Positions 8,950 through 45,793 of a DNA stretch of 64,000 bases are shown piece by piece. The translations under genes and the position numbers were made by a program. The notes below the pieces were generated by a model that worked only from the letters and a program-made list of their open reading frames with translations, did not search any database and was not told the origin of the DNA. Each line of letters starts with the position of its first letter. Positions within the stretch are counted from its first letter, which is position 1. Origin of the DNA: Thermodesulfovibrionales bacterium (GTDB lineage: Bacteria; Nitrospirota; Thermodesulfovibrionia; Thermodesulfovibrionales; SM23-35); the NCBI GenBank assembly GCA_030019415.1, contig JASEEX010000006.1, positions 693-64,692 on the forward strand, given 5' to 3'.

Positions 8950-9136
8950 GTTGAATAACCAATAACCAAATCCCAATGACCAAATAATAACCAATGTCCA
9001 AATTACAAATAACCAAAAATTTAGAATTTAATTATGGTCTGATATTACTGCTTCAAAATTTGAAATTTGTTTGGAAGTGTTTGGTTATTGATTATTGGAA
9101 TTTATTTGGTGATTGGTTATTGGAATTTGGTGATTT
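8950..9136. repeat. long imperfect palindrome built from heptamer-phased units (hypE-pdxJ spacer)
   Basis: The left arm is G-poor (AATAACC AATAACC AAATCCC AATGACC...). The right arm is C-free (TTGGTTA TTGATTA TTGGAAT TTGGTGA...). The arms are partly complementary. Confidence 0.75.
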
Positions 9137-19732: not shown

Positions 19733-19993
19733 CAAATAACCAATCATCAATAACCAATCACCGAACAAGCTCCAACTGCCAATAATTAAACATTAAAATT
19801 CAAAATCCTAATATCTAAATCCTAAACAAATTCAAAATCCTAAATTCAAATATTTAAAATGTTTTGAATTTTGTATTTTGAGCATTTGTGCTTGTTTAGA
19901 ATTTAGGATTTGGGATTTCGGATTTAAACCCTTTAGGATTCCGAATTTGGTATTTCTTTTCAGCATGTTTGGTTATTGTAATTTGGTTATTGG
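19733..19993. repeat. 261-bp imperfect palindrome of heptamer-phased units (tupA-tupB spacer)
   Basis: Left arm CAAATAA CCAATCA TCAATAA ... AAATCCT AAATTCA. Centre AAATTCAAA-tatttaaaatgt-TTTGAATTT. Right arm ...AGGATTT GGGATTT ... TTGGTTA TTGGTTA. Confidence 0.75.
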
Positions 19994-20818
19994 TTATTTT
20001 GCTGCATTGGGAATAAATAGCCGATTGCCATGTTTATCTTTAAATGATGCTATGGCCTGCTGTCCTTCCTTTGATATGATCCAATTGATAAATTCCATGG
20101 ACTCTTTATATTTAACATGTTTATGTTTTTCAGGATTGACCGCCATGACCCCGTATTGATTGAATAATATCGGGTCGCCTTCAAGAACTATAATCATTTC
20201 GAGCTTGTCTCTCTCTCTTGTTGTAAACCATGTGCCCCTGTCTGTTAGAGTATATGCACGTTTTTCGTTTGCAATCCTCTGGGTCTTTTCCATTCCCTGA
20301 CCTGATTCGAGATACCATTTATTCCCTTTTGGGTCAACACCTGTTTTTTTCCAAATTTCGAGTTCTTTATTATGGGTCCCTGAATTATCTCCACGCGAAA
20401 CAAAGGGATATCCAGTCACTGCGATTTTGCGGAATGCATCAGAAGCAAGTTTCATCCCTTTTATTTTTGCAGGATCATCTGAAGGACCTATAAGTATAAA
20501 ATCGTTATACATGACGTCATGGCGATTGACAAAGTATCCTTCCTCAACCGCCTTTAATTCCAGTTCCTTTGCATGAACGAAGACCATATCTGCATCGCCC
20601 CTTTTCCCTATCTCGATGGCTGCACCCGTGCCAACAGCAACCACATCAACCTTAATGCCCATCTTCTTCTCAAATATGGGCAGAATGTAATCAAATAATC
20701 CAGAATTCTGGATACTTGTAGTTGATGCACAGCGGATCCTTGTTTCTGGAGATACCGTGCAGGCGAAAAAACTAAATATAACTGTTACTAATACTAAAAG
20801 ACCCTTTGATAACTTCAT
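19994..20818 (-). CDS. tupA: tungstate/molybdate-type ABC substrate-binding protein (TupA-like)
   Basis: Signal peptide with lipobox-like FFAC. ASTTSIQNSGL anion-binding motif and GTGAAIEIGKRGDADM, typical of TupA-like PBPs. Confidence 0.6.
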   Translation of the reverse strand: MKLSKGLLVLVTVIFSFFACTVSPETRIRCASTTSIQNSGLFDYILPIFEKKMGIKVDVVAVGTGAAIEIGKRGDADMVFVHAKELELKAVEEGYFVNRHDVMYNDFILIGPSDDPAKIKGMKLASDAFRKIAVTGYPFVSRGDNSGTHNKELEIWKKTGVDPKGNKWYLESGQGMEKTQRIANEKRAYTLTDRGTWFTTRERDKLEMIIVLEGDPILFNQYGVMAVNPEKHKHVKYKESMEFINWIISKEGQQAIASFKDKHGNRLFIPNAAK

Positions 20819-29333: not shown

Positions 29334-29518
29334 TCAATTCTGCGGAAGAGAAATTTTTCCAAGCCAGAGCTCTAAAAGTTAGTGTAAAATTTTTAAATAG
29401 GCTTTAAGCTCAATGAAACTCAGAGTCCTTTTAAGCTCTTCTGTAATCGAGATTAACAGGACTTTGAAAATAGATGTAGATTACTCGTAATCATCATAGT
29501 ATATTTGACTATATTAAA

Positions 29519-29657
29519 CCCAAATCCAGCGATAAACGTGCAAACCATTGCTATTGTGTCACCCTGAGCGTGTCGAAGGGTGACACTGATGTCATGGTTC
29601 GACTGGCTCACCATGACATTATCGCTTCATTACGACAAATTTATCGCTGGATTTGGG
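29519..29657. mobile_element. 139-bp MITE with 18-bp perfect TIRs (CCCAAATCCAGCGATAAA) and a TTAAA target-site duplication
   Basis: The TIRs are read directly. TTAAA lies at 29514-29518 and 29658-29662. Internal hairpins are GTGTCACCCT...AGGGTGACAC and ATGTCATGGT...ACCATGACAT. Confidence 0.75.
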
Positions 29658-29703
29658 TTAAAGTATTCATGTTCATATATGGAAATCAACGAGGTTGAAC
29701 CAC

Positions 29704-36902: not shown

Positions 36903-37046
36903 CTTAAAGTTATCTTTTTACCATGTTGTTTTAGGTGTATTCTTGCCTCGGTGAATCGGCATAAAACATTTTACAATATCTTGGCACCTATAGTCTGTAC
37001 AAAACATACCCAATCCTCTTTAACTGGCTGAATATGTATTTTCTAT

Positions 37047-37832
37047 TCAATCCTTTAATCTTAACTTCACAAATTCCTTTAAGGTTGAAGAGGCCTTCTT
37101 AATATCATCACTTTGTGGTAATTTAGAGGTAATCCTGTCTATATAACCCCTTTCTAATAGCAACCTAAAAGATGTCCTGAAATTGAGGTCATATATCCAT
37201 GAGAGTTGCATAAGTTTAAAATCATTCAATGTCTTTACTTTTGAAAGATAAGCCATCCGCCCTCTATGAATACATGAGAGGACATCTTCTGAATAATCCG
37301 TCGTATCTGATAGTCCAAGACCTACTGCAGAGGCCCTTTCTTCTTCAGGACTCTCATAATACTCTATAAATACTCGCCATATATCCAGTTTATCAGCATC
37401 CCTTATTAATCTGATGAAGAAAATAATATCCTTTTTTTCTATCTTTGGTATTGAAAAGGCATTGTGGAATCTTACTGCCTGGATGACCAATTCCTGTTCA
37501 TTATCGGAGAGATTCTGGAGGGTTTTTTCCTCAAGGAGTGTCTGAGCTCCAAGAAGCCCGTGATTAACGGAGATACTATCTCTGAATGTTCTGTATTTTG
37601 CATACTGCGGGAATCTTCCGATATCGTGGAAAAGGGCTACTGTTTCAGCCAGCATCATGTCGTTATTGCCGAGAGACAATTCTCTGGCTATCTCTATAGT
37701 GTTCTTACATACATTGAGGGTGTGTTCTTCCTTAAGATAGATATTCTTCTGATCCCCCATGTTTGATGAATAGAAAGATTTACAATAATCAGAAAACCAG
37801 TTTTTGAAAAAAAATAAATCATCCCGGGTCAT
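37047..37832 (-). CDS. HD domain phosphohydrolase
   Basis: H...HDIGR motif plus a distal D. 261 aa. Overlaps the upstream gene by 4 nt. Confidence 0.75.
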   Translation of the reverse strand: MTRDDLFFFKNWFSDYCKSFYSSNMGDQKNIYLKEEHTLNVCKNTIEIARELSLGNNDMMLAETVALFHDIGRFPQYAKYRTFRDSISVNHGLLGAQTLLEEKTLQNLSDNEQELVIQAVRFHNAFSIPKIEKKDIIFFIRLIRDADKLDIWRVFIEYYESPEEERASAVGLGLSDTTDYSEDVLSCIHRGRMAYLSKVKTLNDFKLMQLSWIYDLNFRTSFRLLLERGYIDRITSKLPQSDDIKKASSTLKEFVKLRLKD

Positions 37833-38590
37833 CTTTCCTCGAGCCCCCCCAACAGAATAATAACAACATTAGGATCTGAAAAAGACATATCCGTAATATC
37901 TTCAGGTGGCCCCTTTGTGATCTTTTCATCAAGGTAACCGAGTCTCTCACAGACAAACATTATGAGCGATAAATTACGGGTGATGGGTGATGAGGTAAGA
38001 ATTTTTGCAATCTCTGTAGGGTTATTTTCTCTATCTGTGAGGATTGCGATTTTCTTGTGTCTTTCAAGCAAAATAGGAATATCCTTAATTTTATACTCCA
38101 GACCTCTTCTCTTTTTAGGGTCCGGGCCTTTGTGAAGACTCATGAGAAAGGCATTATCCCATGGTTCCTTTATCCTCGAAAATGCCACCTGAATGCTTGA
38201 AAGATCAGGGATTATCTCCATCATATCTTTCCTGAATTCACTGATGACCCTCCTACCAATACCAAAGAACAAAGGGTCTCCAGAGGCGAGGACAGTTATA
38301 CCACATGGGGGAAACATAGTTTCCCCCATGGGCCCCTTTTCTTCAAGGGGGATTTCACAAGGGGGACACAGTCCCCCTTGTGTGCGAATTTGTGATTTTA
38401 TGAAGTTGATGGTCTCATCCACATTATCAATTACGAGCACCCTTTCCTTCACCTTCTCAAACTCTTCATATCCTTTAAAAACCTCGAAAAGCCTGCTGGA
38501 GGAAAGTATGAACTCGGAGTTATAGATAATCTCTCTCTGTCTTTTATCAAAGGGCTTGTAGCCTATTCCTATGACATAGATTTTAGTCAC
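37829..38590 (-). CDS. CbiE-like precorrin methyltransferase-fold protein carrying an in-frame palindromic insertion
   Basis: IYVIGIGYKP and VLASGDPLFFGIG tetrapyrrole-methylase motifs. The segment RTQGGLCPPCEIPLEEKGPMGETMFPPCG is encoded by three DNA hairpins. Confidence 0.6.
   Translation of the reverse strand: MTKIYVIGIGYKPFDKRQREIIYNSEFILSSSRLFEVFKGYEEFEKVKERVLVIDNVDETINFIKSQIRTQGGLCPPCEIPLEEKGPMGETMFPPCGITVLASGDPLFFGIGRRVISEFRKDMMEIIPDLSSIQVAFSRIKEPWDNAFLMSLHKGPDPKKRRGLEYKIKDIPILLERHKKIAILTDRENNPTEIAKILTSSPITRNLSLIMFVCERLGYLDEKITKGPPEDITDMSFSDPNVVIILLGGLEER
38304..38382. repeat. three consecutive GC hairpins inside the cbiE-like CDS
   Basis: CATGGGGGAAAC-ATA-GTTTCCCCCATG, CCCCTT-TTCTTC-AAGGGG, and CACAAGGGGGAC-ACA-GTCCCCCTTGTG. 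All stems are perfect. Confidence 0.85.
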
Positions 38591-39310: not shown

Positions 39311-39398
39311 GGAAGGATGGGAGAGTGGTTGAATCCAGGCGCCTCGAAAGCGTCCAGGTCGAAAGGCCTCGCAGGTTCGAATCCTGCTCCTTCCGCCA
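39311..39398 (+). tRNA. tRNA-Ser (anticodon CGA), CCA encoded
   Basis: Acceptor GGAAGGA/TCCTTCC, anticodon stem GGCGC/GCGTC with loop CTCGAAA, long variable arm, T-arm GCAGGTTCGAATCCTGC. Confidence 0.85.
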
Positions 39399-39510: not shown

Positions 39511-39567
39511 CGACACGCTCAGGGTGACACAATAGCAATGGTTTGCACGTTTATCGCTGGATTTGGG
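39511..39567. mobile_element. 57-bp half copy of the 29519..29657 MITE (inverted orientation, 100% identical)
   Basis: The reverse complement equals 29519-29575 base for base. It breaks off inside the first internal hairpin. Confidence 0.75.
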
Positions 39568-39631
39568 TTATAATAATGTCATGAGCCAGAAGTTGCACAA
39601 GAAAGGGAAGACCTACTAAAAGAGGTCGGTA

Positions 39632-41919: not shown

Positions 41920-43578
41920 CTACCTATACCACTCATTCTTTTCTTTTGGCACATACCAGTGTATAAAGTCATACCATATGCCCAGTGGTGCCTTCTCTAC
42001 ACCCTTAAACCTCTTGTGAAGTACGGGAAGGGCATCCGGGACATAAAGAAAGGTATAGGGTTGACCATCCGCGAGGATTTCATGTATCCTGTGGTAAATT
42101 TTTCTTCTTTTTTCAATATCAAATGTCCTTCTTCCCAGAAGGAGAAGCCTGTCAACCTCCTCATTTTTGTATGAAATAAAATTAAATTCCCCTTCCCTGG
42201 TCTTTGAAGAATGCCAGATGTCATAGGCATCAGGGTCTCTTGATAAAGCCCATCCCATAATGACTGCCTCAAAGCGTTTCTTGTCTATAAATTCATGTAA
42301 CATCGCCTGCCATTCAAGCACCCTTATATTCATATCAATCCCGACCCTCTTAAGGTTCTCCTTTATTATCTGAGCTGTCTTGAGCCTCGCCTCATTGCCC
42401 TGATTTACAAGGACGATGAAACTGAAGGGCTTACCGTCTTTACACAAAATGAGGCCTTTGTATTCTTTATGAGATCCCCCTTCTGAAGGAAGGGGTTCCA
42501 CAGGGGAAACACAGTTTCCCCTGTGCAGTCTCCATCCTGCCTGGGCAAAAAGTATCAATGCCTTCTCGGGATTATACTCGAGGTCTTTTACAGCAGGATT
42601 ATATGCCCATGATTCTGGGGGAAAGGGGCAAGTGCAAGGGGTACCGTAGCCGAGGAGGACACCATCAATAATATCCTCCTTGTTTATTGAATGGGTAAGG
42701 GCCTGCCTGACTCTCTTATCCGAAAACCTCGGGTCAAGGAGGTTATAGCCTAAATATGTATATCCGAAAGAGGGGTATCTAAATTTCTGAAAATATCTAT
42801 TGAAGAACTCTGAATTTGCCTGGAGTTTAAACTGTGGTGGTGTAAGGCCCATAAAGTCTATGCCACCAAATTTCAGTTCAAGGAACATAGTTGCCATATC
42901 TGGGATAATCCTCGCAACATATTTATCAATCCCCGGCCTTCCCTCAAAATACTTATCGAATGCCTCCAGGACTATCTTCTGACCCGTCACCCACTCCTTT
43001 AATTTATAGGGGCCGGTTCCGATAGGATTTCTATTGTATTTTTCGGAAGTTATATCTTTTCCATCAAGTATATGTTTAGGAATTATTCCCATAGCCCATG
43101 ATTCAAGTGCTGGTGCATAAGGCTCTTTGTAAAATACCTTCACTGTGTATTTGTTTAATACCTCGACCTTCTCTAAAGGACCATAATTGCTGCTATATGG
43201 TGTTGGAACCTCCGGGTCTATTACAGTCTTACATGTAAACAGGACATCTTCAGCAGTAAATTCTACACCATCGTGCCATTTAACATCCTTCCTGAGGTGG
43301 AATGTTATCTGAAGACCATCAGGAGAAATATCCCATGACTCAGCCAGATCACCCGTTATCTTTATATTCTTATCGTATTTCGTAAGACCATTAAATATAA
43401 GGCCGCTGATCTCGCCTGAAGCGCTGTCGGAAGCAAGTAAAGGAAGGAGCCTCTTTGCATCGGCAAGAAAGCCTACAGTGATTGTATTAGGTCTTTTAAT
43501 CTCGGGCTCACGAGTGCATCCGAAAGCAAGAAATAGAAAGTAGGAAATAAGAAGTAAGAGGGATATTCTTCGTCTCAC
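41920..43578 (-). CDS. ABC transporter substrate-binding protein, family 5 (peptide/nickel type), with an in-frame palindromic insertion
   Basis: Lipobox LAFGC and typical family-5 blocks. The segment HRGNCVSPVEPLPSEGGSH is encoded by two DNA hairpins. Confidence 0.85.
   Translation of the reverse strand: MRRRISLLLLISYFLFLAFGCTREPEIKRPNTITVGFLADAKRLLPLLASDSASGEISGLIFNGLTKYDKNIKITGDLAESWDISPDGLQITFHLRKDVKWHDGVEFTAEDVLFTCKTVIDPEVPTPYSSNYGPLEKVEVLNKYTVKVFYKEPYAPALESWAMGIIPKHILDGKDITSEKYNRNPIGTGPYKLKEWVTGQKIVLEAFDKYFEGRPGIDKYVARIIPDMATMFLELKFGGIDFMGLTPPQFKLQANSEFFNRYFQKFRYPSFGYTYLGYNLLDPRFSDKRVRQALTHSINKEDIIDGVLLGYGTPCTCPFPPESWAYNPAVKDLEYNPEKALILFAQAGWRLHRGNCVSPVEPLPSEGGSHKEYKGLILCKDGKPFSFIVLVNQGNEARLKTAQIIKENLKRVGIDMNIRVLEWQAMLHEFIDKKRFEAVIMGWALSRDPDAYDIWHSSKTREGEFNFISYKNEEVDRLLLLGRRTFDIEKRRKIYHRIHEILADGQPYTFLYVPDALPVLHKRFKGVEKAPLGIWYDFIHWYVPKEKNEWYR
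42477..42525. repeat. two GC hairpins inside the SBP CDS
   Basis: CCCCTTC-TGAAG-GAAGGGG and CACAGGGGAAAC-ACA-GTTTCCCCTGTG, both with perfect stems. Confidence 0.85.
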
Positions 43579-43580
43579 GC

Positions 43581-43743
43581 TTTACCCCGTTAGAATGCCC
43601 CGCTGCTTGCCCCGTGCGAAGCTTTGCTTCTATCGGGGCTTGCAGCGGGGATGAAAATAATTTCCTTTTTGAGCGAACACGGGGTCAATGCCCCGTGTGA
43701 GCATTCCCGTTAGAAGGGCGAAAGGTCTTCTAACGGGGTTTAC
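43581..43743. repeat. 163-bp composite palindromic element with CCCCGTTAGAA termini
   Basis: TTTACCCCGTTAGAA ... TTCTAACGGGGTTTAC outer inverted repeat. Inner stems CCCCGCTGCTTGCCCCG/CGGGGCTTGCAGCGGGG, ACACGGGG/CCCCGTGT and CCCGTTAGAAG/CTTCTAACGGG. Confidence 0.7.
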
Positions 43744-43746
43744 TGT

Positions 43747-44118
43747 TCATTTTGCTTGTGCAGGTGGTTGTGGTGCTTGAGGCTGTGCAGGTGCTTGGCC
43801 TGGTTGCACACCTCTATCCTGAACTGGACCAGATGTAGCTGGGATTGATCTTTTTTCCTCGGCTGCAGGTGTCTTTTTAATGACAGAGCCTCCCTTAGCA
43901 GTAACAACCGCTAACAAAAGGGATGTAATCATAAAAATAATTGCAGTGGCGGTAGTCACCTTATTCAGAAATGTTGCAGCCCCCCGGCTTCCGAAAAGTG
44001 TCTGGCTTGAACCTCCAAAGGCAGCACCGAGCTGGGCGCCCTTACCACTCTGAAGAAGAACTATAGCTATAAGAAAAAAACAGACAAGAATATGAATTAT
44101 TAATAGAAGCGTTGTCAT
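43747..44118 (-). CDS. secG: preprotein translocase subunit SecG with Pro/Gln/Ala-rich C-terminal extension
   Basis: LLQSGKGAQLGAAFGGSSQTLFG signature and two TM helices. Confidence 0.8.
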   Translation of the reverse strand: MTTLLLIIHILVCFFLIAIVLLQSGKGAQLGAAFGGSSQTLFGSRGAATFLNKVTTATAIIFMITSLLLAVVTAKGGSVIKKTPAAEEKRSIPATSGPVQDRGVQPGQAPAQPQAPQPPAQAK

Positions 44119-44132
44119 TGTTCCTCCAAATT

Positions 44133-44926: not shown

Positions 44927-45793
44927 TCATATCTTAACCCTTCTAAGAAACGCTGAGTTACTTACAACAGACAATGAGCTTATAGACATAGCTAAAGCTG
45001 CAATAATAGGGTTTAAAAGACCAAAGGCAGCGATAGGAATAGCAGCAGTATTATAAAAGAACGCCCAGAAAAGGTTTTGCTTTATCTTCCGCATCGTTGC
45101 CCTGCTAAGCTTTATCCCTTTAATGACGTTTCTCAGGTCTTCACTGACCAATATAATTCCCCCTGTCTCCTTGGCAACATCCGAGCCACTTCCTATGGCT
45201 ATTCCAATGTCTGCCTGAGCAAGGACAGGGGAATCGTTAATCCCGTCTCCAACCATTGCCACAACCTTTCCCTCTGCTTGAAGATCTTTTATAACTTTTG
45301 CCTTATCACCTGGAACGACATTAGCTATGATCCTCTCTATCCCTGCCCTTGCACCTATAGATCTTGCTGTTCTTTCATTGTCACCGGTTAGCAAGACAAC
45401 TTGAATTCCTTCGGCCTTAAGCCCTTTCACTACATCTTCTGCATATCCCTTCAGGGTATCAGCAACGGCGATCAGACCTTTCAGTTTGTTGTCTACTGCC
45501 ACAATCATCACGGTATTGCCCTTTTCCTCAAGGTCTGATAACTCTGTTTCTCTGTCTTCTATAGAGATACCCCTGTCTTTCATCAGTCTCCTATTTCCTA
45601 TCAATATCTCCTCTCCATTAAAGTTTACCCTGACCCCGTGGCCGGGCATGGCTTCAAAAGCTTCAGCGTCTGGTATAGTGAGAGCCATCATATTTGCTTT
45701 TTTGATTATGGCCTCTGCAAGGGGGTGCTCTGAACCTTTCTCTGCAATAGAGGCAGGAAGGATGACATCCTTTTCACTTCCAACAAAGGCCAC
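44927..45793 (-). pseudogene. C-terminal third of a heavy-metal P1B-type ATPase (CopA-like)
   Basis: SEHPLAEAI, MVGDGINDSP and the last two TM helices are present. The metal-binding domain, TM1-6, CPC and DKTGT regions are absent. Confidence 0.7.

Follow-up and report, generated by a model that had tools for sequence, protein, structure and literature searches.

What accounts for two closely spaced hairpins lying in frame inside a gene for a family-5 solute-binding protein (SBP)? The question is raised by positions 42477-42525 of a 64,000-nt stretch of the Thermodesulfovibrionales contig JASEEX010000006.1 (assembly GCA_030019415.1), hereafter the window, to which all window coordinates refer. 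The comparisons reported here make it probable that this element is one copy of a dispersed palindromic repeat, similar to repetitive extragenic palindromes (REPs) and Rickettsia palindromic elements (RPEs), that enters protein-coding genes of the Thermodesulfovibrionales and of the Nitrospirota more broadly.

An in-frame insertion in a solute-binding protein gene

A comparison of the DNA of all copies, as proposed in the initial annotation of the locus, yielded a consensus in which the element is better read as a unit of about 39-42 nt, where a purine-rich head is separated by 2-5 nt from a hairpin of 12 bp closed by a 3-nt loop. The copy in the SBP gene is referred to as unit S, and retrieved loci and proteins are designated by L and P numbers.

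41920-43578, minus strand: host gene 1, family-5 solute-binding protein (peptide/nickel type), intact open reading frame (ORF) of 552 aa
42451-42531, minus strand: region of the in-frame insertion, with about 63 nt (21 aa) more than in homologues, from protein and DNA alignments
42477-42495, no strand assigned: small hairpin CCCCTTCTGAAGGAAGGGG (CCCCTTC-TGAAG-GAAGGGG), 7-bp stem
42485-42498, plus strand: head GAAGGAAGGGG and spacer TTC of unit S, laid out as in L128, L129 and viral contigs
42499-42525, plus strand: hairpin of unit S, CACAGGGGAAAC-ACA-GTTTCCCCTGTG, perfect 12-bp stem and 3-nt loop

Both hairpins were verified in the window DNA with the sequences initially described, as were their in-frame location in a family-5 SBP gene and the peptide they encode. 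The ORF matches SBP_bac_5 (PF00496, E = 1.3e-92) and AppA of B. subtilis (1xoc, E = 8e-87), and its homologues, named as peptide-binding proteins, belong to Nitrospirota/Thermodesulfovibrionales. On the gene strand the hairpins are read into a product that includes HRGNCVSPVEPLPSEGGSH / AGWRLHRGNCVSPVEPLPSEGGSHKEYKGLILCKDGKPF, with HRGNCVSPV encoded by the hairpin at 42499-42525; unit S itself is oriented antisense to the gene.

The assertion that family-5 SBPs normally have only a short turn at this point (AGW..DGK) also held. Among the 120 nearest homologues, at 74-84% identity, 117 lack about 21 aa at exactly the insert point, and a phmmer alignment places a 19-residue gap in AppA within the same segment. 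Among the 120 homologues, extra sequence at the site is restricted to the query, P0003 (HRGNCVSPVEPLPEKRGS...) and P0001, in which it is diverged. Judged from these alignments, the segment is an insertion and not an ancestral loop. The alignment located the insert, but its exact ends are not fixed, because the nearest empty allele (L003) is only ~80% identical there. The AlphaFold model of the SBP (mean pLDDT, the predicted local distance difference test score, 49.5), poor because the alignment is shallow, was set aside in favour of the sequence alignment with 1xoc.

Scanned systematically for perfect hairpins (stem of 12 bp or longer, loop of 3-5 nt), the window was found to contain three, one in the SBP gene and two in cbiE, against a mean of 0.03 and a maximum of 1 per 64 kb in 60 first-order Markov simulations. 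Folded as single-stranded DNA (ssDNA), the SBP element reaches -20 to -22 kcal/mol (z = -5 to -6); for the element in cbiE the figure is -33 kcal/mol (z = -7.5 to -8.5), and in neither case was any of 200 shuffles as stable. On the mRNA strand the respective inserts reach -35.6 kcal/mol (z = -4.9) and -56 kcal/mol (z = -7.4). No T-run follows any window unit and every one lies mid-ORF, so that neither the U-run nor the position at a gene 3' end expected of intrinsic terminators is found. The window copies are solitary or paired and never arrayed in the manner of CRISPR repeats. In Rfam the units matched no family at the gathering score, and what appeared at E <= 10 was sub-threshold noise.

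The same unit in cbiE

The other two hairpins lie in a second gene of the window, where the features are as follows.

37829-38590, minus strand: host gene 2, cbiE (precorrin-6Y methyltransferase subunit), intact ORF of 253 aa, PF00590
38299-38385, minus strand: cbiE insert of about 25 aa in a hypervariable linker before the LASGDP motif (120-homologue alignment)
38304-38330: hairpin 1, CATGGGGGAAAC-ATA-GTTTCCCCCATG, perfect 12-bp stem and 3-nt loop
38333-38350: small hairpin CCCCTT-TTCTTC-AAGGGG, between the two 12-bp hairpins
38356-38382, plus strand: hairpin 2, CACAAGGGGGAC-ACA-GTCCCCCTTGTG, perfect 12-bp stem and 3-nt loop
38304-38344, minus strand: unit A, head GAAGAAAAGGGG, spacer CC, hairpin CATGGGGGAAAC-TAT-GTTTCCCCCATG, sense to cbiE
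38345-38382, plus strand: unit B, head AAGGGGG, spacer ATTT, hairpin CACAAGGGGGAC-ACA-GTCCCCCTTGTG, antisense to cbiE

The encoded protein is 100% identical to P0121, named CbiE by NCBI. With 253 aa it is longer than most standalone CbiE homologues (227-231 aa), and its Pfam match spans only residues 99-231. In the 120-homologue alignment the LASGDP motif that follows the linker is invariant. An AlphaFold (AF2) model of CbiE (mean pLDDT 77) shows a single long stretch of low confidence, residues 73-95, which score below 50 and correspond to the insert between a helix (57-70) and a strand (98-103).

Units A and B are arranged head to head. Unit A encodes EEKGPMGETMFPPC, its hairpin being read as PMGETMFPPC, and unit B yields TQGGLCPPC on the gene strand. 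The initial annotation had the two loci share an architecture of a small CCCCTT/AAGGGG hairpin beside a 12-bp hairpin. The cbiE copies do exist and belong to the same DNA family, but the small hairpin is better read as heads: in cbiE it arises where two heads meet back to back as a head-to-head dimer, and in the SBP gene the head of unit S supplies its right arm, while by comparison with cbiE its left arm may be what is left of a second head in inverted orientation. Relative L004 has unit B alone at cbiE. The stems were also said to differ by 1-2 nt, a figure that needed correction, since the arm of the SBP hairpin differs by 2 nt from that of cbiE hairpin 1 and by 3 nt from that of hairpin 2.

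The CbiE linkers of other genomes hold different sequences. That of L135 contains an unrelated palindrome, TCCCCCCCTT-ACC-AAGGGGGGGA; the homologue P0148 (L136, 713-1438) has three tandem copies of the 7-mer AAAACTC, which do not form a palindrome; and L137 has a non-repetitive insert. The differing nature of the inserts in L136 and L137 indicates that the linker tolerates indels of several origins.

Copies in other Nitrospirota genes and anatomy of the unit

Further copies were found by a metagenome scan followed by inspection of the retrieved loci. A unit lies in frame in the ComEC/Rec2 gene of a Nitrospirae metagenome-assembled genome (MAG; L129, ...LLEVRGLMGETEFPPCISK...). L128 carries two, one in a PD40 beta-propeller lipoprotein gene and one in the adjacent M1/M28 peptidase gene, and L027 has units in a ProRS-like class II aminoacyl-tRNA synthetase (editing domain) and in a 122-aa ORF; all of these host genes but the 122-aa ORF were confirmed with Pfam. 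Every G4A3C-type unit (8 of 8, at 7 independent Nitrospirota loci) lies inside a long ORF. No intergenic copy was seen in the ~150 kb examined, in which loci other than the window had been chosen for having a copy, and the 64-kb window likewise has no intergenic unit. Independent NCBI, ENA, Logan and JGI assemblies contain diverged versions of the units, which are therefore not an assembly artefact.

A second in-frame palindrome type, C6-7TT-NNN-AAG6-7 (TCCCCCC(C)TT-NNN-AAGGGGGG(G)A), encodes PPL(A/T)KGG in other Nitrospirota MAGs and has arms similar to the main unit's head. It was observed in a TamB-like gene (L001, 4923-4943) and, in L135 (259-281 and 3912-3936), in the CbiE linker, where it is partly duplicated, and in a CbiG/CbiH-like gene; all three copies are within long ORFs.

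Across the main family, the head reads GAAGRAAGGGG, with consensus (G)GAAGGGG(G), and the hairpin is of type G4-5A1-3C. Because the single 39-42-nt units of other genomes have the head and lack the small hairpin, the small CCCCTT/AAGGGG hairpin was rejected as an obligatory second module. The flanks are GTTC/CAGT, GGCC/TGGT and ATTT/TGCG for the window units and GGTT/CGCA for those of L128. Copies are found in both orientations and are read in different frames (HRGNCVSPV, TQGGLCPPC, MGETxFPPC, SWGKQGFPH, QGGNKVSPC). The hairpin cores are open in all frames, the stops present in some frames stemming from loops or flanking bases. Given the different frames of the window hairpins, the shared entity is DNA and not peptide, and the recurrence of the same DNA unit in different frames of unrelated Nitrospirota genes upholds the original contention that protein-level conservation is not the cause. 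The outer four stem pairs, which were left unconstrained in the genome and viral search patterns, covary: they occur in 21 different variants with full pairing, where shuffling predicts 2.9.

Searches with the encoded peptides were uninformative. A 48-aa chimeric probe of three insert peptides returned no candidates from an index of 5.8 billion proteins, and phmmer with the 33-aa cbiE insert peptide against 1.84 billion representatives gave one match, a Cys-rich repeat protein (E = 9e-4) that was judged spurious; the insert motif is too short for a peptide-level phmmer approach. BLAST of the unit against plasmids gave no match, and literature searches found no paper describing the unit hairpin, the matches to hairpin sequences being irrelevant.

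Filled and empty alleles

The insertion mode can be read from the two L128 sites, for which an assembly ~80% identical to L128, GCA_900174565.1 (L217), provides empty alleles lacking both units. In the PD40 gene, L128 differs by an insert of exactly 42 nt, ATGC-AAGGGG-TT-CATGGGGGAAAC-AGA-GTTTCCCCCATG-CGC, between CTCAG and AAA. In the peptidase gene the insert comprises 39 nt, AGGGGG-TT-CATGGGGGAAAC-AAG-GTTTCCCCCATG-CGCA, follows CCTTTGC and sits just past an apparent N-terminal signal peptide. The boundary is ambiguous by at most 1 nt in the 42-nt pair, and no duplication is visible in the 39-nt pair. Neither target-site duplications (TSDs) nor terminal inverted repeats (TIRs) were present in either filled/empty pair, which argues against a miniature inverted-repeat transposable element (MITE) of the DDE type. 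The left flanks of the empty sites, CTCAG and TTTGC, have no obvious target in common, on the basis of these two sites only. Both inserts are multiples of three in length and are read in different frames, as expected from selection on random insertions. The two pairs would be compatible with hairpin-directed single-strand mechanisms of the type used by REPs and REP-associated tyrosine transposases (RAYTs) or by the IS200/IS605 insertion sequences.

Evolution of the copies after insertion

The initial annotation had considered an ancestral, widely conserved SBP loop in which synonymous variation destroys the palindrome in relatives. No ancestral loop was seen; the synonymous decay was. At the SBP site of L001, three synonymous substitutions separate the sequence from the window hairpin, two of them weakening the stem (RNA fold z = -1.85). 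In L002 the first hairpin is lost and a palindrome, CCATGAACCA-GAAA-CGGTTCATGG, fills the second half of the insert. With the palindrome eroded in one relative and overwritten in another, the SBP copy evolves largely as coding sequence once inserted; P0003 keeps HRGNCVSPVEPLP through synonymous changes. At cbiE, unit B of L004 differs from the window by two compensatory double changes, synonymous and at third codon positions, that leave the 12-bp palindrome perfect (chance probability ~7e-4), and unit A of L003 shows one compensatory pair and one unpaired change. These cases, too few to discriminate, could reflect selection on structure or template-switch correction from arm to arm.

A single ancestral insertion shared by an SBP clade was rejected, given that the three insert-bearing SBPs are not monophyletic. 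The syntenic contig JBFMDQ010000003.1 (L003, GCA_040753955.1) is 96-98% identical to the window over most of ~16 kb, but identity drops to only ~80.6% in secG and the first two-thirds (5') of the SBP gene, returning to ~97% about 45 nt downstream of the SBP insert. Beyond this recombination junction the window SBP protein is 99.4% identical to the empty-site protein P0002. The proximity of the junction to the insert and the high identity beyond it indicate that the insert came or went with the recombined segment, and it may be speculated that heterology or the hairpin set the end of the recombination tract.

Compared with L003, the window is a recombination mosaic at 37038-37835 and 42441-44128, with blocks of ~80-82% identity (an HD-domain gene, and secG with the first two-thirds of the SBP gene) amid 96-98%. 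L003 has, between secG and the SBP gene, an additional 222-aa ORF with no Pfam match that is absent in the window, L001 and L002. The P-type (YHS/E1-E2) ATPase of the window (44927-45793) consists of a 288-aa ORF for the C-terminal hydrolase domain only; with 761 aa in the L003 gene, and positions 4024-6953 of L003 unmatched by BLAST in the window, the gene appears truncated or partly deleted.

Similar hairpins beyond the Nitrospirota

The hairpin core GGGGAAAC-NNN-GTTTCCCC is abundant in several non-Nitrospirota groups, and in a contig scan for GGGGAAACNNNGTTTCCCC high-GC phyla predominate among the matches listed. In MAGs of Gaiellaceae, Thermoleophilia and other Actinomycetes it takes the form GAAGAAGGGGG-N2-3-C(A/G)(C/T)G-GGGGAAAC-NNN-GTTTCCCC-C(A/G)(C/T)G within longer multi-hairpin repeats, and in Chloroflexaceae MAGs it is one module within clusters of different hairpins. 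Spurious ORFs are long in these high-GC actinobacterial and Chloroflexi loci, so that the longest-spanning-ORF test is uninformative on coding there. The core is accompanied by the same GGAAGGGG head in low-GC viral contigs, where most copies fall in short ORFs and are thus probably intergenic. The bare core is not diagnostic, because many hp2-type viral hairpins look like terminators.

The likeness of these copies to the window units extends over ~40 nt, but their homology across phyla is not proven. The head-plus-hairpin layout might define an unrecognised, tag-less superfamily spanning Nitrospirota, Gaiellales (Actinomycetota), Chloroflexaceae and low-GC viral contigs, which in low-GC Nitrospirota would prefer coding sequence and act as a mobile loop-adder with its own hairpin-recognising enzyme and an actively maintained palindrome, but we regard so broad a proposal as doubtful. 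If the relationship across phyla is true, the family would lend itself well to a search for the enzyme responsible for moving tag-less REP-like hairpins.

Several of these loci have features of their own. The longer composite repeat of Gaiellaceae/Actinomycetes (L016, L022, L045, L098, L111 and many others) reads GTGGGGAACC-GGGA-GGTTCCCCAC ... GAAGAAGGGGG-N2-3-12-bp hairpin ... AGCGAGCCGAAGGCGAGCGACGCT; its opposite strand encodes M(S/T)VARLRLAPVGETMFPPRAPFF..., open for ~35 codons past the hairpin, it has no Rfam match, and it could be either a structured repeat or a small ORF. The Chloroflexaceae loci (L005, L042, L044, L054, L085, L092 and others) contain dense GC-rich hairpin modules that include GGGGAAAC-NNN-GTTTCCCC, CCCAACCGCTGTTGGG and GGGAGGGC..GCCCTCCC, frequently with a terminal GAGGTGAACATAC, and in L054 a CRISPR-DR28 array lies ~1.5 kb from the hairpin cluster. 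Several low-GC IMG/VR contigs (L139, L144, L151 and L155, the last labelled GVMAG) share the near-identical stretch (GAGAAAC)GGAAGGGGTCA-TAGGGGAAAC-TAC-GTTTCCCCTA-AAAATTGA, which may be an orthologous locus or a large-virus repeat with the head and hairpin laid out as in the Nitrospirota units.

Other repeats in the window

A 149-bp MITE-like element with 23-nt TIRs (TTAAACCCAAATCCAGCGATAAA ... TTTATCGCTGGATTTGGGTTAAA) lies between called ORFs at 29514-29662. Of its sequence, 59 nt recur in inverted orientation and with 100% identity at 39511-39569, ~115 nt downstream of a tRNA gene (39311-39395), and the two copies flank a ~10-kb segment that includes cbiE. AT-rich repeats of the AATAACCAAT / TTGGTTATT type, direct and inverted, are found between called ORFs at 8954-9135 and 19734-19999, ~10.8 kb apart.

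A probable mobile palindromic repeat and its alternatives

According to the reading that we consider probable, copies of the unit would be inserted into chromosomal protein-coding genes of Thermodesulfovibrionales/Nitrospirota and would persist where their length is a multiple of three, the frame used contains no stop and the site is permissive, as the AGW..DGK segment of the SBP, the CbiE linker before LASGDP and N-terminal linkers elsewhere would be. Copies persisting under these constraints are most likely translated as an extra loop of 13-28 aa, and we infer that such a loop is harmless. After insertion a copy would evolve with its gene, some decaying synonymously and others staying perfect through paired changes.

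The agent of copying is a more tentative matter. A trans-acting enzyme that recognises ssDNA hairpins, namely an HUH/Y1 transposase of RAYT- or IS200/IS605-like kind, is the likeliest candidate, although less likely than not to be the agent, because in the unit a short motif lies beside a hairpin and insertion leaves no target duplication. Enzymes of the HUH/Y1, RAYT and IS200/IS605 types are not known to duplicate their target on insertion. REP/RAYT-type insertion is not known to leave such a duplication, and members of the IS200/IS605 family typically have hairpin ends, lack both TIRs and TSDs and insert beside a specific 4-5-nt target.

A number of observations weigh against a mobile repeat. 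The SBP site itself has no clean empty allele. A scan of 46 window ORFs of 100-455 aa, which did not extend to eight longer ones, revealed no transposase, nor does the syntenic annotation of L003 contain one, and no RAYT was found linked to the units. All Nitrospirota copies are intragenic, opposite to the distribution of classical REPs, although with a coding density of ~85-90% this is not statistically remarkable. With 3 units in 64 kb and only 10 exact-stem, A/T-flanked-loop matches in JGI metagenomes, the family need not be a high-copy one. The non-monophyly of the insert-bearing SBPs calls for recombination, repeated loss or repeated gain, and the resemblance across phyla could be partly convergent, G-run hairpins being common terminators.

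It is conceivable that the hairpins are kept as structures acting in cis on RNA or DNA (a ribosome pause, mRNA stability or processing, a replication or recombination signal), with the coding insertion as a by-product. The stability of the mRNA-strand folds (-35.6 and -56 kcal/mol), the perfect stems maintained by compensatory double changes (two pairs in L004, one in L003) and the switch from ~80% to ~97% identity ~45 nt from the SBP insert all speak for such a role. We nevertheless consider it unlikely, since the insert is absent from 117 of 120 SBP and most CbiE orthologues and is therefore not needed for gene function, the stem has been eroded in L001 (z -1.85) and overwritten in L002, no U-tract follows the hairpins and no Rfam family emerges even at E <= 10; template-switch correction of the arms could, moreover, mimic compensatory change without selection. 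The same template switching, or fold-back repair, might instead generate palindromes de novo at hypervariable, indel-prone loops and turn quasi-palindromes into perfect ones, making them a mutational signature and not mobile copies. Paired arm changes are the expected product of that correction, and the relatives do show unrelated palindromes at the same permissive sites (the SBP of L002, the CbiE linker of L135) as well as a 7-mer tandem repeat (L136) and a non-repetitive insert (L137) in the CbiE linker. What makes a de novo origin less likely still is that the same 27-nt hairpin, with the same head and spacer layout, recurs in at least 7 unrelated genes of several genomes, and that the empty alleles contain no part of the 39- and 42-nt blocks and nothing local from which these could have grown.

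Being small, repeated and non-coding by itself, the unit also invites comparison with classical MITEs, deletion derivatives of DDE-transposase insertion sequences with TIRs and TSDs, and the element at 29514-29662 shows that such sequences occur in the source genome. This origin is very unlikely: the two filled/empty pairs have no TSD, the head is present at one end only, the inverted repeat forms the whole body and not the termini, and the 39- and 42-nt inserts fall below the 70-300 bp range of MITEs (PMC3733652). Scarcely credible, finally, is a loop ancestrally conserved at the protein level in an SBP subfamily, or an assembly or sequencing artefact. Retention of HRGNCVSPVEPLP in P0003 through synonymous changes would fit the former, but the insert occurs in 3 of 120 homologues that do not form a clade and the frames differ between genes, and the diverged copies in independent assemblies from four sources contradict the latter.

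The dispersed-repeat reading has practical consequences. The two clean filled/empty pairs constrain the insertion mechanism, and the units point to loops that appear permissive, both in CbiE and in a binding protein of the OppA/AppA type. Inserts of this kind inflate apparent protein divergence, break profile-HMM (hidden Markov model) matches and can mislead gene-tree and recombination analyses.

Comparison with known palindromic repeats

Two REP superfamilies, set by an unpaired GTAG or CGTC tag, have been described (Di Nocera et al., 2013; PMC3733652); that survey listed neither in Nitrospirota and listed GTAG repeats in Chloroflexi. The Nitrospirota units have no unpaired GTAG or CGTC and carry instead the purine-rich GGAAGGGG head 2-5 nt from the stem. 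They share the general shape of the RAYT-associated GTAG superfamily (stem of 5-13 bp, loop of 2-20 nt, often head-to-head dimers), but the tag, GTAG or degenerate GYRG, is absent from the flanks of the window and L128 units, and where GTAG repeats form many, mostly extragenic copies, the Nitrospirota units seen are all within ORFs. The CGTC superfamily, to which Rickettsia RPE-4 and RPE-6 belong, is defined by a CGTC (or TGTC/CCTC) tag, an 8-9-bp stem opening with A-T pairs, a 4-5-nt loop and a short CCA-like tail. With it the Nitrospirota units have in common the in-frame location inside genes for known proteins, and they differ in lacking the CGTC tag, in a stem that starts with C-A, and in having a 12-bp stem and 3-nt loop.

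The closest parallels are intragenic REPs, often dimers encoding 20-30 aa, reported in Opitutus terrae, Rickettsia conorii (RPE-4 and RPE-6), Thauera and others, with tRNA synthetase genes among their hosts (PMC3733652). Like them, the Nitrospirota units are short stem-loops in frame in known genes, singly or as head-to-head dimers, with covarying stem residues and a clustered, modular arrangement, and the ProRS-like synthetase of L027 matches the synthetase hosts there. RPE-1, described as "longer palindromic insertions" (PMC3733652), is also comparable. It consists of in-frame palindromic repeats in many unrelated, apparently functional genes, but its sequence is unrelated and its host is an obligate intracellular parasite, as opposed to a free-living one here. 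RPE-1 measures ~100-150 bp, against 39-42 nt for the unit.

REPIN/RAYT systems (REP doublets forming hairpins, with their RAYTs), as portrayed by Bertels and Rainey (2011; PMC3116915), resemble the present family in their hairpin-based, non-autonomous units, in inverted pairs such as that in cbiE and in a conserved short motif at the hairpin foot; they differ from it, as portrayed there, in the GTAG motif, absent here, and in the doublet, the basic insertion here being a single unit (twice in L128, and in L004). A looser likeness, by analogy only, is to the GC clusters of fungal mitochondria, which share G/C-run hairpins, a GC content above that of an AT-rich host and in-frame tolerance, and which are organellar and of other sequence. 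Coding genes of fungal mitochondria harbour such inserted GC-rich palindromic clusters.

Intragenic REPs and RPEs are thus already known, whereas the head-plus-hairpin family, its anatomy, its exclusively intragenic occurrence among the Nitrospirota copies sampled and its possible spread across phyla appear to be undescribed. The copies in the SBP gene, in cbiE and at the related loci would extend in-frame palindromic repeats of the Rickettsia type to free-living Nitrospirota, with a unit that falls outside both described REP superfamilies.

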